In this document: one piece after another, positions 8,512-16,165 of the stretch | How positions within the stretch are numbered: the first letter of the stretch is position 1 | Layout: every line of letters starts with the position of its first letter | NCBI GenBank assembly: GCA_000004695.1 | Contig: CM000154.2 | Coordinates: forward strand, 4,704,001-4,768,000 | Source: Dictyostelium discoideum | Taxonomy: Eukaryota | DNA length: 64,000 nt | Direction: 5' to 3' | Position numbers and translations under genes: made by a program | Notes under the pieces: generated by a model | What the model was told of the DNA's origin: nothing | The model's database searches: none | What the model saw: only the letters and a program-made list of their open reading frames with translations

Positions 8512-9902
8512 TAATTTAGATTACAAAAAAGCATATGAAGAACTTTTAGAAAAAGAAAAAGAACATCAAAAAGTTCTTTTAACTTTTAGAAAAACAAAAA
8601 GCATATGAAGAACTTTTAAAAAAAGAACATCAAGAAAAAGAAAAAGCATATGAAGAACTTTTAGATAAAGAAAAAGAACTTCAAGAAAAAGAAAAAGAAA
8701 ATCAAAAAAAAAGAAAAAGAAAGATCCATCAGACATCTTATTGATAATGGCATACCAAAGTGCATTATAACATCAACATCACAATCTTCGTCAAACCATG
8801 ATTCATGTCAATTACAACCTAGCACTTGGGTTGGGATACCAAATTTTGAAGATCTTTTAGAAAAGAATGGTGATAAAGAATCAAGTGTGTTGTCTCTTTA
8901 TAGAAACTCTGATACTTTCACTGCTCGTAATGAATATGAACTATATAATTTTACAAATCCTATTATTAGAGATGCTTTGAAATTATGTGGTCTTGAACAT
9001 GAAATTTCAATTGTTTCTCAAGAAGATATTGTTGGATTACAACCAGATCATTGGTTATTAAAATCAAAAACTAATTATATTGGTTTAATTCAAGTCGAAT
9101 GTAATGAAGATTCATTTCATGAACCAAAGGTCATTGGACAAATGTTTGATTATTTAATGGATCTTTCTTATCGTTTTGGCAAATTACAAGCATTTGGACT
9201 TTTATTAACATACAACAAAGCAATGACTGTATCCACACATGATTCACTAAAATCGGCAGCTGCTAATATTCAAACATCTGCTTTACCTGATCAAATTAGC
9301 AAAACTGTAAAAAATTATTATATGAAATTTATTTAGTCAAGTATTTAGGTGGTGGAGGCGATGGACATTGCTCTTATGCATTAGCAGAAGAGGGTCATAG
9401 TTTGGTTATAAAATCTTTCAATAACACAATTAAAAAAAGAAAAGAGATGAAGAAAGAAGATTATGGCACACCATTTGGGGAATTGAAACTCATAAAAACA
9501 TATGCAGCTAAAGATCATTTGGTAATGCCATTCATAAAACCAATTGGAAATGATGATTATAATAGTACAGATTTTATGGATTTAATATCTACTGCAGCAG
9601 ATACTTTCTCAAGTAAAGGTTATGAACATATGGATTTACACATTAGACATATTTGTAAATACAAAAAAAATGAAAAATGTGAATATATATTTATTGATTT
9701 ATCAAGAGTATCAAAAGTCACAGATAAAGATCAAGCAAAACAAAGAATGATTAATTGTATTTTAAAAGATTTAGAAAAAATCAGATATAATCATAGTTTA
9801 ACCGATAACGAACAACCAAACTCTTCCATTGCCCATGCAAATCTTGAACGATTTTCCAATCCTTTTACCATTCCTTTAACTCCAAATGATAAGTCCAAGT
9901 AA
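8512..9902 (+). pseudogene. Frameshift-disrupted gene with degenerate N-terminal KAYEELLEKEKE coiled-coil repeats, a middle region, and a C-terminal atypical protein-kinase-like domain (Gly-loop YLGGGGDGHCSYALAEEGHSLVIKSF, HMDLHIRHI, IFIDLS). This could instead be an intact gene carrying a sequencing error.
   Basis: Two long open frames (about 8745-9336 and 9294-9902) overlap by 42 nt in different frames. Adding one A to the A6 run at 9309-9314 fuses them into ..DQISKTVKKLLYEIYLVKYLGGGG... The only GT..AG candidate here is 35 nt, too short for an intron. The three KAYEELL repeat units at 8520-8700 are themselves out of frame with one another. Confidence 0.4.
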
Positions 9903-10301
9903 TTTATTTAATAAATAATTAATATAAAATTGTAAATAAACGTTATTAAATTGGGTTATAGCAGTGTTGGTAAATCCAATAATAAACATCAACATTAAAA
10001 AATATCGGTAATGATGATTCATTTATTGGTGCTGCTTTAATTTCATTTAATACTTTAATGAATTTAAATAAATAAAATAATAAAAAGATGGAATATTCCA
10101 ATTTGTGTAAAAAAAAAAGGTGTGTGTTTATTTAAATAAAAACTATTTCAAATAAAATTGATAATATTTTTCTTTAAAGTTTAGAGGATATCAGCTGGAC
10201 TAACTAAATTTTCTTTTTTATCGAAATACTATTATTTTTTTAAAAAGTATATAATAAAATATATTAATTTTAGTATTTTTATTTTTTATTTATTTATTTA
10301 T

Positions 10302-11143
10302 TTATTTATTAAATAATAATACACTTACTTTTGAATCATCATTATCCCAATAAATTACAAGAGTTTTACCATCTAATTTTGATTGGATATCTTTGTAAAT
10401 TCTAATTTCATCAACAGTTGAATATACTCCAAGAGCACCTAATTATTATTATTATTATTGTTGTTGTTGGTGTTTACATTAAATTATTAGTTTTATTTGA
10501 AAAAATTAAAAATTAAAAATTAAAAAATTAAAATTTTACCTGGTTTCATTAAATTAAGTGAAATATATTCAACATCTTTTGGGAAATCAATTCTGGTTGA
10601 ATCATATTTTAAATGCATATTTTTTTTACATGGTTTACCAGTACTATCACCAGCTTTGATTTCTTTGTAATCACTGCTTTTTGGGTCCAAGTAAATTCTA
10701 ACTGCTTTATTCCATCCAGTCTTTTCGTTAACAAGGATTCTATTATTATTATAATTTTAATAATATAAAAAAAAAAAAAAAAAAAAAAATGAAATAATTA
10801 ATTAAATATTATAAACAAAAACATTTTTAATTATTGTGGGTTTTTTTTTTATTTTTTATTATAATATCTTACAATCTAAAACCACCCTTTGGTCTTTTAT
10901 CATTGAATCTTAAATATTTAACTTCTAATTTATCGGCCTCTATAATGGGTAAAAATAAATAAATAAATAAATAAATAAGTTTTAAAATAAAAATAAAAAT
11001 AATATTATAAAAAAGAGAGAAATACCTTTGTCTGGTAAAAAACCTTTGATTTTATCAATAGCTGTTGAACCAATTGCAACAATACCACCAACAGCACCAA
11101 TTGCAGCTGCGACAGTTGTTAAAGTTAATGTAATGACTACCAT
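10302..11143 (-). CDS. Small N-terminally anchored or secreted protein, copy 1 of a tandem pair. Four exons (11143..11026, 10939..10873, 10739..10540, 10438..10302).
   Basis: Exon 1 codes MVVITLTLTTVAAAIGAVGGIVAIGSTAIDKIKGFLPDK (hydrophobic anchor). Donors GTATTT, GTAAGA and GTAAAA and AG acceptors give a phase-consistent product ..EADKLEVKYLRFNDKRPKGGFRL LILVNEKTGWNKAVRIYLDPKSSDYKEIKAGDSTGKPCKKNMHLKYDSTRIDFPKDVEYISLNLMKPG ALGVYSTVDEIRIYKDIQSKLDGKTLVIYWDNDDSKVSVLLFNK*. Confidence 0.6.
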
Positions 11144-11785
11144 TTTTTTTTTTTTTTAATGATAAATTTGATTAAATAAATGAATATTTGATTTAAAAAA
11201 CAGTTATTTTAATAAAGTTTAAGTTAATTTTGATTAATTTTTTTTTTTTTTTTTTTTTTTTGACATTTTATAGTAAATTTTTTTTATTAGACTTAGATAT
11301 TATTATGCTGAGCATTTTTTTATTTTTATTTTTATTATTGGAAAATTGTTTAAAAAATAGTAAAAGCTTTGGTGATTGGTTATTTTGTAAAAAATCTTTA
11401 AATCTAAAGTTTTTTTTGAACTTGTGCGTGGTGTGAAAGTAATTTTTTTTTGTTTTTTTTTTTAAATTAAAAAAAAAAAAAAAAATGACACTTGCCAAAG
11501 ATCCAATCATCACTAAAAGATTTTTTAATTTGTAAAATTAAAAAAAAAAAAAATTATGTTGCGATTAAAATCTTTTTTTTTATTAAATTATTATATTTCA
11601 TTTATTTTAATTTTTATTTTTATTTTTTTTTAATTTTTTATAATAATTTTTTTTTTTTTTTTTTCTCTTAAGAATTTAAAAATTACGGAATCATATTATT
11701 GGATTACCAAAAGGTAAAAAAAAAAAAAAAAAAAAAAAAAGGAAATTTACGGAGTGTCTTTTTTATCATTTAAAAAAAAAAAATT

Positions 11786-11821
<36 letters not shown>

Positions 11822-12467
11822 TTTTAATAGTTGTGTAAAAAAAGAAATCATTTACCATCCTCAATTAGAAATAATATTACTTAATGTGTTAAAAATAATT
11901 TTTAAGATGTTGGAAATGGTTTTAATTTTTTTTTTTATTTTTTTTTATTTTATTTTATTTTATTTTATTTTTAATTTATTTTTTTTTACAACAGAGCCTC
12001 TTAAAATTAAGATATTAGTTTTGGGTAAATCATCAATAATTAATGTTTTTCTTACCAGATTGCGGTAATATAATTAATAATAAATTTATGAAAAATAAAA
12101 ACAAATGGCTGAGGAATGGTGTAAAAATCAATTCAACTCTATAATAATACTCATATACAATATATTGAAACTTCAACATTTAATAATTAATCATTTATTA
12201 GTGCTGCTTCAATTTCATTTAATATTAATCAATTTAAATATATAATTAAATAAATCATTGTAATATTAAAAAAATAAAAAGATGGAATATTCTTATTTAT
12301 GTAAAAAAATAATAAAAAAAAAGTGTGTGTGTTTATTTAAAATAAAATTATTTCAAATAAAATGATATTTTAGAGGATGTCAGCTGGACTAACTAAATTT
12401 TCTAGTCTATCGAAATACTATTATTTTATTAAAAAATAAAAAAAATTTATTATAGTATTTATTTATT

Positions 12468-12480
12468 TTAAAAAAAGTAA

Positions 12481-12575
<95 letters not shown>

Positions 12576-13001
12576 ACTTACTTTTGAATCATTATTATCC
12601 CAATAAATTACAAGAGTTTTACCATCTAATTTTGATTGAAGATCTTTGTTAACTCTAATTTCATTAACAGTTGAATACACTCCAAAAGCACCTATTTATT
12701 ATTTATATTATTATTATTATTGTTACATTTAAATTTTATTAGTTTTATTTTATTTTATTTTATTTGAAAATTTTTAAAAAAAAACATACCTGGTTTCATT
12801 AAATTAAGAGTAAAGTATTCAACATCTTTTGGGAAATCAATTCTAGTTGAATCGTATTTTAAATGTGTGTTTTTTTTACATTGTTTACCAGTACTATCAC
12901 CAGCTTTGATTTCTCTGTAATCACTGCCACCTGGTTTCATGTAAATTCTAACTGCTTTATTCCATCCAGTCTTTTCATTAACAAGGATTCTATTGGGTGT
13001 G

Positions 13002-13088
<87 letters not shown>

Positions 13089-13497
13089 TTTATATAAAAA
13101 AAAAAAAAAAAATTAATAATTAATTGTTAGTGTTTTTTTTTTTTTTTTTTTATATTTTTTCAGAAATTATTTTATCTTACAATCTAAAACCACCTTTTGG
13201 TCTTTTATCATTGAATCTTAAATATTTTATTTCTGATTTATCAGCATCTATAATGAAAAAATAAAAATTAAAAAATAAAAAATAAAAAATAAAAAATAAA
13301 AATGATTATAAGTTTTAAAATAAAAATAAAAATTAAAAATGGAAATTGGAATAATAAAAAAAAAAAAAGAGAAAAATACCTTTATCTGGTATAAAACCTT
13401 TGATTGTGTCAACAGCTGTTGAACCGATCATAGCAATACCACCAGCAATACAAATTGCAGCCCCGACAGTTGTTAAAACTAATGTAACGACTACCAT
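12468..13497 (-). CDS. Copy 2 of the same gene, about 85-90% nucleotide identity over the exons. An (AAT)n expansion at the 3' end of the last exon turns the tail into a long poly-Leu tract.
   Basis: Start MVVVTLVLTTVGAAICIAGGIAMIGSTAVDTIKGFIPDK with the same exon/intron layout. ORF-track fragments 12755..12940 and 12468..12680 match copy 1 exons 3 and 4. The tail reads ..DNNDSKVSVLLLL(L)n, encoded by the reverse of (AAT)n at 12481-12575. Confidence 0.55.
12481..12575. repeat. (AAT)n microsatellite of about 31 units, specific to copy 2 of the duplicated gene
   Basis: Uninterrupted aat repeat. The equivalent position in copy 1 (10311-10320) has only about three units. Confidence 0.9.
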
Positions 13498-13995
13498 TTT
13501 TTTTTTTATTGATAAATTATTTGATTTAAAAAAATAGTTATTACACTAAGTTAAAGTTTATTTTGAATTTTAAAAATGATTTATTTTTTTTTATTTTTTT
13601 TTTTGACATTTTATAGTAATTTTTTTTGTTGGATTTACATATTATTGGAAAAATGTTAAAAAAATAGTAAAAGTTTTGATGATTGGTTATTTTGTAAAAA
13701 ATCTTTAAATATAAAGTTTTTTTTGAATTTGTTAACAAAAGACTTTTGTGTCATGAACAAATTCAAAAAAATCGCAAAAAAAATTTTATTTTTCATTTAA
13801 AAAAAAAAAAGGTAAAAATTTTATATGGCCATTAAAATCTTTTTTTTTAACAGGCGAAACAGGGCCGGCTTAATTATTATATTTTATTTAATTTATTTTT
13901 TATTTTTCTCATAAAAATTTAAAAAATTATGAAATCTGTATAAAAAATCGAATTATTTGTTTACCAAAAGGTTTCTTATCATACGAAAAAAAATA

Positions 13996-14044
<49 letters not shown>

Positions 14045-14493
14045 TTAATAACACCTATTTTTATATTATTTATTTAATATTAAAATAGGTGTTATTTGAT
14101 TATCTAATATTCTATTAATTTTTTTTATTTCCATAAATAAATTTTAATTTTTTTTTTGTTTTTTTTTTTTCTTTAAACTTGGTAGAAATGATTTTACAAA
14201 TAAAATGTCATAGCGAAATTTTAAAACTATAAATAGTTTTAACCCCTTTTCGAATTAATTTTTACTCTTTTAAAATCTTAAAAAAAAAATAAAAAAAAAA
14301 TTAATATATTTCCCCCTTTTGGTAATAAAATTACTAAAAATGAGTTTTACTTTTTTTTTTTTTTTTTTTTTTTTATAAATTAAATTTTTTTTTTTTATAT
14401 ATCTAGAAAATTAAAAAAAATTTATTTAAATTTATATTTATATAAAATAATAAAATTATTTATTTGTTGGAATAACAAATAAAATAATAAAAA

Positions 14494-16165
14494 ATGAAGT
14501 ATAATATAATATTATTATTTATAATATTTTTATTAAGTTTTATGAATTTTGGTGTAAATGCAAATTCATATGATTTTACAGATTTTCCAAATGCATCAAT
14601 TGTTATCACTTGGAATAATTTATTATTAAATGCAATTCATAAAGCAAGTCCACCTCCAACAGTAGTTTCAAGAAGTCTTTCAATGGTTCATACAGCAATA
14701 TATGATTCATGGGCATACTATACAAATTCTAAAGGTGTTTATTTAATTGGTGAATCAAATTGTTCAACAATACCAAAAAATAAAAATGATAATGATATTA
14801 AAAAATCAATTTCATTTGCAGCATATAGAACTTTAGTTGATTTATATCCACTATCAATGTAAATAAATAATATTATTTATTAAAAATAATTATAATAATA
14901 ATAACATATAATAAAAAAAATAGGTATTAATACTATTTATTTTGAAAATAAGTGATAATTATAATGAAAAAATGAAAAATTTAGGATATGATATAAATGA
15001 TATTAATTTAAATTTAGATAATTCAGTTGGTATTGGAAATAAAGCATCAAAATTATTATTAGAGAATAGATGGTTGGATGGATCAAATCAAAAGGCAATT
15101 TATGGTGGTAAAAATTATAGTGATTGGACTAATTATGCACCAAGAAATGATGCTCAACCATCTAAATTAAGAAAACCTGATAATTGGCAACCGTTATCTG
15201 TACCTGTTAAAAACTCAACTTTATTTACAATACAATCATTTTCAACACCACAATGGGGTAGTGTGAAACCATTTTCATTATTATCAGGCTCACAATTGAG
15301 ACCAACAATACCACCACCTTACTATTCATTCAATGATCAAAATAATAATAAAACAATTGAGAAATTAAAGAATTCAGCATGGGAGTTAATTGGATATACT
15401 CAAAATATGACAGATGAAATTAAAGCGATTGCAGAGTATTTTGGTGATGGTCCAAATTCAGTATTGCCACCAGGTCATTGGAATTTATTTGCACAATTTG
15501 TATCAAAACGTGATAATCATTCAATTGAACAAGATGTTAAATTATACTTTATGTTAAATAATGCTCAATTAGATTCAGGAATCGCATGTTGGGATTGTAA
15601 AAGATTCTTTGATAATGCTAGACCTGTTACAATGATTCCAGTTCTATTTAAAGGTGTTAAAATAACTGGTTGGAATGGTATTTGTAAAGAAAATGTTGAA
15701 TTTGATTTATCTAATTGGATACCATATCAAGATCCATATGTTATTACTCCACCATTTTCAGATTAGTAAGTAGTAATAAATTAATTAATTTTAATTTATT
15801 TCATTTAATTTATTTTAATTTATTTTATTAATTTATTTATTTTTAGTACAAGTGGACATAGTACATTTTCATCATCAGCAGCAGAAATTTTAAAAAGGTT
15901 TACCGGTAGTGATAAATTTGGTAATTCGGTTACAATTAAAGCTGGATCATCAATTTTTGAAACCAACTGTTCATTTCCAGTACCAAAAACTGATATTAAC
16001 TTATATTGGGAAACATTTACAGATGCTGCACAACAAGCATGCATTTCAAGACGTTATGGAGGTATACATTATGATTTTTCAGATTATGAAGCAAGAAAAA
16101 TGGGTAGGAAAATTGGTGAAATGGTTTGGGATAAATCTCAATCGTTATTTAATAATATAGATTGA
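14494..16165 (+). CDS. Secreted PAP2-superfamily (acid phosphatase / vanadium-dependent haloperoxidase-like) protein. Three exons (14494..14858, 14953..15765, 15847..16165).
   Basis: Signal peptide MKYNIILLFIIFLLSFMNFGVNA. The three PAP2/VHPO active-site motifs are all present: KRFFDNARP (K-x6-RP), ..PPFSD|YTSGHS (PSGH, completed across a splice junction) and SRRYGGIHYDFSD (SR-x5-H-x3-D). A PPGHW motif also occurs. Donors GTAAAT and GTAAGT and AG acceptors keep phase. Confidence 0.8.

Follow-up and report, generated by a model that had tools for sequence, protein, structure and literature searches.

A stretch of 64,000 nucleotides of the Dictyostelium discoideum genome (GenBank assembly GCA_000004695.1, contig CM000154.2, forward-strand positions 4,704,001 to 4,768,000), hereafter the window, carries on its minus strand a pair of adjacent genes, DDB_G0290885 (copy 1, 10181..11143) and DDB_G0290887 (copy 2, 12370..13497). 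A preliminary description, made from the letters of the window, had proposed that an expanded AAT microsatellite had given copy 2 a new poly-leucine C-terminus. Our analysis leads us, with high confidence, to a different picture: the two genes form a real tandem pair with five exons each, the AAT array of copy 2 lies in an intron, both products are 180 aa in length with a hydrophilic C-terminus, and copy 2 is the faster-evolving and apparently dispensable member of the pair.

The structures of both genes were derived from their splice sites and conceptual translation. Copy 1 begins with an ATG at 11143 on the minus strand, and its exons occupy 11143-11026, 10939-10873, 10739-10540, 10438-10329 and 10228-10181 (with the stop). 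Copy 2 begins at 13497 on the same strand, with exons at 13497-13380, 13247-13181, 12989-12790, 12691-12582 and 12417-12370. Both start positions are those given earlier, and the structure is indeed common to the two copies, but the earlier count of four exons had overlooked the last one. The exon lengths are the same in both genes (118, 67, 200, 110 and 48 nt), and the introns are short and AT-rich, with canonical GT..AG boundaries, which together with the 21.6% GC of the window is typical of Dictyostelium. Directly after the ..DSK codons both copies have a donor, AAAA followed by GTAAGTGT, with the consensus GTAAGT; the acceptor of intron 4, TAATAG, comes 100 nt further on in copy 1 and 164 nt further on in copy 2, where its context is AATAATAG followed by TAT. 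Behind this acceptor lies exon 5, 48 nt long and open in phase 0, which codes for YFDKKENLVSPADIL or YFDRLENLVSPADIL up to the stop, and both spliced products end YFD..ENLVSPADIL. The 5-exon models of both genes are already present in the AX4 annotation, and the locus is in this sense an ordinary one: the product of copy 1 matches P0001 ('hypothetical protein DDB_G0290885 [D. discoideum AX4]') over its full length at 100% identity, and that of copy 2 is 100% identical to P0006, which is DDB_G0290887. Both are annotated as hypothetical, without a function, and the two proteins share 83% identity.

In copy 1, intron 4 (10229..10328, minus strand, delimited by its splice signals) has (ATT)3 after the GTAAGTGT donor. 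Its counterpart in copy 2 (12581-12418, minus strand, likewise delimited) holds an array that reads (AAT)31 on the plus strand and (AUU)31 in the pre-mRNA. Tandem Repeats Finder (TRF) places this array at 12481..12574, as (AAT)31.3 with 100% matches, and finds it where copy 1 has three units, just as the preliminary description had counted. The array begins 4 nt past the GTAAGT donor hexamer and thus sits between the donor at 12581 and the acceptor at 12418, with a downstream exon that is conserved in frame. For comparison, intron 4 was obtained by tblastn-anchored extraction from the loci of D. cf. discoideum ACTFIZ (L001), D. citrinum (L002), D. firmibasis (L003), D. discoideum ACTFIR (L004), D. 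cf. discoideum ACTFIY (L005), a 67%-identical paralog in D. citrinum (L006) and a second assembly of AX4 type (L007). The number of (ATT)n units after the donor is 3 in AX4 copy 1 and 31 in AX4 copy 2, about 28 in ACTFIZ, 4 in D. citrinum, about 46 in D. firmibasis, 2 in ACTFIR, 2 in copy 1 and about 40, interrupted, in copy 2 of ACTFIY, and none in the D. citrinum paralog. Exon 5 is present 60-198 nt past exon 4, behind an AG, in all the intact homologs, including the microsatellite-free paralog, and is kept in frame, with no indels, in eight intact genes. In a comparison of the seven close genes, 1 variable site of exon 5 is at a first codon position, 2 are at second and 9 at third positions, which is the pattern that a translated exon under purifying selection would leave. 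Given the GTAAGT donor, the conserved exon 5, the identity with the annotated products and the unrelated translations that result from reading through the donor (see below), the (AAT)31 array is almost certainly part of intron 4 and spliced out, leaving no poly-leucine tail. The codon-position bias and the inconsistent frames of the read-through are tests at the level of DNA, and are independent of the annotation.

The two genes belong to a tandem segmental duplication. A repeat search over 9000-15500, with which blastn agrees, recovered a series of direct repeats in collinear order, offset by 2189-2354 bp, namely 10180-10281 and 12369-12470; 10312-10469 and 12565-12722 (91%); 10530-10744 and 12780-12994 (90%); 10825-10993 and 13133-13301; 11009-11210 and 13363-13564; and 11333-11425 and 13640-13732 (94%). 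The copies are arranged head to tail on the minus strand and are collinear from the 3' flank through all the exons to a block upstream of the ATG, and tblastn finds only these 2 gene copies in the window. The self-comparison of the region therefore recovers the two copies as they had been described, at close to the unit offset of about 2.25-2.35 kb given there and with similarity extending both into the shared 5' blocks that had been regarded as promoters and into the 3' flanks. Scans for tRNA genes and Rfam matches in 9000-15500 found none.

Over their coding sequences (CDS) the two copies are 10.3% divergent, with a synonymous divergence (Ks) of 0.173, a non-synonymous divergence (Ka) of 0.096 and a Ka/Ks of 0.56. 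On the same scale, the Ks between AX4 genes and their orthologs is 0.10-0.13 for ACTFIR or ACTFIY, 0.33 for D. citrinum and 0.52 for D. firmibasis. In a neighbor-joining tree of the codon alignment (543 nt), copy 2 of AX4 groups with copy 2 of ACTFIY at a bootstrap of 100%, and this clade stands beside the copy 1 orthologs, within the D. discoideum complex and after the divergence of D. citrinum (84% bootstrap). D. citrinum and D. firmibasis both have a single copy, which lies between a VCPO-like gene and the same downstream genes. Because the outgroups are single-copy, and because of this placement in the tree, the duplication is specific to the D. discoideum complex; it postdates the split from D. 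citrinum and predates the divergence of AX4, ACTFIY and ACTFIR. The preliminary description had called it recent and had suggested that Ks between the two CDS be calculated as a check. At the scale of the genus the duplication is young, but a Ks of 0.17 makes it older than the split of the sampled isolates.

Measured against the outgroups, copy 2 has a Ka of ~0.10 and copy 1 one of 0.04-0.06, such that copy 2 has evolved about twice as fast. In AX4 its open reading frame (ORF) is intact, its splice sites are all canonical and its exons are free of indels. In ACTFIY the ortholog of copy 2 is a pseudogene, its exon 1 interrupted by an in-frame stop and its exon 5 damaged. The annotated ACTFIY_001013 (P0008, 168 aa; L005 7935-9213) is a mis-modelled version of this pseudogene that starts at an internal methionine and takes its C-terminus from a spurious terminal exon, translated from the antisense strand of a small-GTPase relic. 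The flanking DNA of ACTFIR is collinear with that of AX4, but the equivalent of 13771-12476 is gone (region of L004 5086-5245), a deletion of ~1.3 kb that took exons 1-4 of copy 2 and the promoter in front of them. What is left is a relic at L004 5110-5214, which agrees at 103 of 108 positions with copy 2, namely with the last part of its intron 4, distal exon 5 and the 3' untranslated region (UTR); its match to copy 1 is clearly poorer. The breakpoint adjoins the microsatellite of intron 4 at its 3' end, a hint of a repeat-associated deletion. With a pseudogene in ACTFIY and the greater part of the gene deleted in ACTFIR, copy 2 appears, from the sequences compared, to be a dispensable duplicate.

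Copy 2 of AX4 has a second long array, which was absent from the preliminary description. It was detected by TRF at 13003..13093, within intron 2, as (TTA)30 on the plus strand and hence (AAU)n in the pre-mRNA of this minus-strand gene; with a length of (TTA)30.3 it is the reverse complement of the array in intron 4. Inverted repeats between the two arrays (I1-I25 of the repeat search) are up to 98% complementary, and in a 651-nt segment of the copy 2 pre-mRNA the arrays are predicted to pair over ~90 bp, with exons 3-4 looped out (-148.9 kcal/mol, z = -9.6). The intron 2 expansion is specific to AX4, the same site in copy 2 of ACTFIY having only (AAT)5. Intron 3 can carry long AT trinucleotide arrays as well, as it does in ACTFIZ (37 units) and in D. 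citrinum (22 units), and ACTFIZ has a similar pair of complementary arrays, in introns 3 and 4. Arrays of this AT-rich trinucleotide type grow and shrink freely in introns 2, 3 and 4 of the different orthologs.

In the window as a whole, AT-only trinucleotide arrays with 10 or more perfect units number 18, or roughly one every 3.5 kb. They span 4191-55987 of the window, the longest having 53 units at 26688-46, and the window also contains TCA, CAA, TTG and TGT arrays, which are maybe coding homopolymer tracts. Many triplet arrays of D. discoideum are coding, giving poly-Asn or poly-Gln, and from these the array of copy 2 differs in being intronic. In D. discoideum, simple sequence repeats (SSRs) were reported by Eichinger et al. 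in 2005 to account for over 10% of the genome. The copy 2 array resembles the AT-rich trinucleotide microsatellites of Dictyostelium in being a non-coding (AAT)n whose length is highly variable between isolates. In D. giganteum, AAT is the dominant trinucleotide SSR and is polymorphic (PMC13487327). Arrays of this sort are a normal, polymorphic part of Dictyostelium genomes.

Among the alternatives, the one that fares best, while still unlikely, is that copy 2 of AX4 is already non-functional, a pseudogene in the making, whether expressed or silent, with the complementary intronic arrays as part of its decay, for example through impaired splicing of exons 3-4. Its roughly doubled non-synonymous rate, the Ka/Ks of 0.56 between the copies, the loss of its ortholog by mutation in ACTFIY and by deletion in ACTFIR, and the restriction to copy 2 of both long arrays with their predicted pairing would all accord with such a decay. 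However, the intact ORF of AX4 copy 2, with canonical splice sites and no exon indels, speaks against it, as do a Ka/Ks that is below 1, pointing to some remaining constraint, and an upstream block that has been kept at 94%. A more specific proposal, which we regard as improbable, is that the A-U duplex of the two arrays could cause skipping of exons 3-4 (310 nt, with a frameshift) or back-splicing to a circular RNA. If it were true, microsatellite expansion would be a mechanism that functionally silences a young duplicate. In a weaker variant of the same idea, low-level retention of intron 4 could give rise to an isoform with a poly-leucine tail.

The proposal of the preliminary description itself, in which intron 4 of copy 2 stays unspliced and its (UUA)n adds a C-terminal anchor of ~30 leucines, akin to a transmembrane or glycosylphosphatidylinositol (GPI) anchor segment, now seems hardly tenable. 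Its arithmetic is reproduced exactly, if the intron is left in place: translation beyond exon 4 ends in ..DDSKVSVLLFNK (that is, ..VSVLLFNK) with a stop at 10302 in copy 1, and in ..NDSKVSV(L)30FYFF with a stop at 12468 in copy 2. The same reading gives poly-leucine in ACTFIZ as well, and AT-rich introns may be retained. Yet it gives poly-isoleucine in D. citrinum, poly-tyrosine in D. firmibasis and 6-8 unrelated residues, such as VSVLFI before the stop, in the remaining genes, so that the other tails are either out of the poly-leucine frame or short, with no conservation among them. The perfect GTAAGT donor, the acceptor and exon 5 conserved across all intact homologs, the third-position bias in exon 5 and the spliced 180-aa form of the annotated products argue in the same direction, and the repeat count at this site ranges over 2-46 with the protein unchanged. 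The comparative evidence hence places the repeat in an intron, a situation that the preliminary description had itself set against its own proposal.

Still less room is left for the view that the second copy or the repeat length is an assembly artefact, arising through collapse or expansion of low-complexity DNA: the region is extremely AT-rich and laden with homopolymers, and two assemblies disagree on four homopolymer lengths, but such an artefact is very unlikely, indeed practically negligible, because the second assembly and ACTFIY both carry the tandem pair, ACTFIR retains a relic of copy 2, and the copies, which are ~10% apart in CDS and unlike in intron length, are not a duplicated pile of reads. 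The second assembly (GCA_054883475.1, of an AX4-type lineage) matches the copy 2 gene exactly over 1128 bp, including both microsatellites, and across 9950-14350 the four homopolymer runs are the only differences between the two.

Certain considerations weigh against the five-exon, intronic interpretation of the pair and the history proposed for it. We infer the splicing of intron 4 from the annotation, the canonical signals and the comparative signatures, and the annotations of related species may share similar pipelines and hence not be fully independent. There may also be some retention of intron 4 in copy 2. With regard to the history, the tree, built on 543 nt, gives only moderate support (44-84% bootstrap) to a sister relationship between the clades of copy 1 and copy 2, and gene conversion could have lowered the Ks between the copies.

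At the protein level, the preliminary description had envisaged a small anchored or secreted protein. An anchor-like hydrophobic segment does exist, but it is N-terminal and not C-terminal: the first ~29 residues are strongly hydrophobic, with a Kyte-Doolittle maximum of 2.1-2.3 over 19 residues, the values outside residues 1-35 being at most 0.52. This segment could serve as a signal anchor, or it could be a signal that is not cleaved. The spliced ends YFDKKENLVSPADIL and YFDRLENLVSPADIL are hydrophilic and form no C-terminal hydrophobic segment, which excludes a GPI or tail-anchor signal for the predicted products. The AlphaFold2 model has a β-sandwich at residues 39-180, a domain of ~140 residues with a predicted local distance difference test (pLDDT) score of 70-86. 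No Pfam family matched either protein at E ≤1. A profile search with hmmsearch over 1.84 billion representatives gave 20 matches at E ≤1e-3; 10 of these 20 were looked up, and all are hypothetical proteins of dictyostelids or EukProt models. Homologs include DDB_G0267726, DDB_G0267728, DDB_G0268332 and DDB_G0279525, along with proteins of D. purpureum, D. firmibasis, D. citrinum and Tieghemostelium lacteum. Like the pair, these are short proteins (146-230 aa) that match the profile across the β-sandwich domain, with E-values down to 1e-40, but they are only distantly related to DDB_G0290885 and DDB_G0290887, and they too belong to no Pfam family. The two proteins are members of a dictyostelid-restricted family, often found in tandem arrays, as the locus tags of members are consecutive. 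The presence of introns varies within the family, the D. firmibasis gene (L003 6001-6185) being without intron 1 and the D. citrinum paralog (L006 8001-8569) without introns 1 and 3. Beyond the family, the closest systems include generic β-sandwich domains, such as DUF2436 of the gingipain PrtH, the luminal domain of HGSNAT, the extracellular domain of PepT2, TssJ, C2 domains and carbohydrate-binding modules (CBMs). A literature search by the identifiers DDB_G0290885 and DDB_G0290887 and those of four family members found no mention of them in the papers searched. Our best guess as to function is a membrane-tethered or secreted binding module.

The block of similarity upstream of the genes lies about 190-280 nt 5' of the ATG in copy 1 (11333..11425, minus strand), with its counterpart at 13640..13732 (minus strand) in copy 2. 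Over its ~93 nt it shows 92.6-93.5% identity in the ACTFIR and ACTFIY loci, and it is thus conserved above the level of the CDS. On the coding strand it includes a CCAAT-like motif, AACCAATCA, and it is probably a promoter element and thus a candidate for cis-regulation.

The duplicated unit was larger than the 180-aa gene. Using the intact small GTPase of ACTFIY (L005 11356-11985, minus strand) as a tblastn query, we found a relic of a convergent small-GTPase gene 3' of copy 1, comprising its last 29 codons and the stop (9986..10072, plus strand; 86% identity, E 2e-10), and a decayed small-GTPase pseudogene between the two copies (11994..12223, plus strand; three high-scoring segment pairs (HSPs), E 1e-4 to 8e-9). 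In the latter, the P-loop part (11994-12059) has a 5-aa deletion, the C-terminal part (12099-12223) has a frameshift and a stop, and the middle of the gene is missing. The ACTFIY product has precomputed Pfam matches to Arf, Ras and Roc, as a member of the Ras superfamily of small GTPases. In ACTFIY and D. citrinum the GTPase gene is convergent with the 180-aa gene, their stops being ~118 bp apart, and in D. citrinum it is apparently intact (L002 7275-7933, with HSPs 64-74% identical over most of the protein). The similarity of the 3' flanks within the window is in part exon 5 and the 3' UTR, the remainder being these GTPase relics. Since GTPase remains adjoin each copy of the 180-aa gene, both genes were duplicated together, and neither copy of the GTPase survives in AX4. 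In our reading, a tandem duplication of a ~2.2-2.35 kb segment within the D. discoideum complex carried the two genes, after which both 180-aa genes were kept in AX4 while the GTPase copies decayed to relics.

The site of the GTPase gene next to copy 1 is occupied in AX4 and ACTFIR by a gene for a DUF5898 protein (~8520-9920 of the window on the plus strand, L007 11586-12987, L004 7603-9324), which cuts the GTPase to its last 29 codons. It is annotated with 424 aa in the assembly of AX4 type and with 573 aa in ACTFIR, and its presence at this site looks like a lineage-specific insertion or rearrangement. The possibility that the 3' block at 10009-10068 is a terminal exon of this upstream plus-strand gene was rejected: there are stops upstream of it in the three plus-strand frames, and tblastn assigns it to the GTPase relic.

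The locus gives no sign of an unusual mechanism, and the results matter mainly for annotation: in the AT-rich DNA of Dictyostelium a short terminal exon is easily missed, and an intronic microsatellite may then be mistaken for coding sequence. Furthermore, the pair offers a tidy example of the fate of a gene duplicate, copy 2 having stayed intact in AX4, become a pseudogene in ACTFIY and been lost for the most part by deletion in ACTFIR. For the dictyostelid-specific family to which both copies belong, functional data of any kind would be new.

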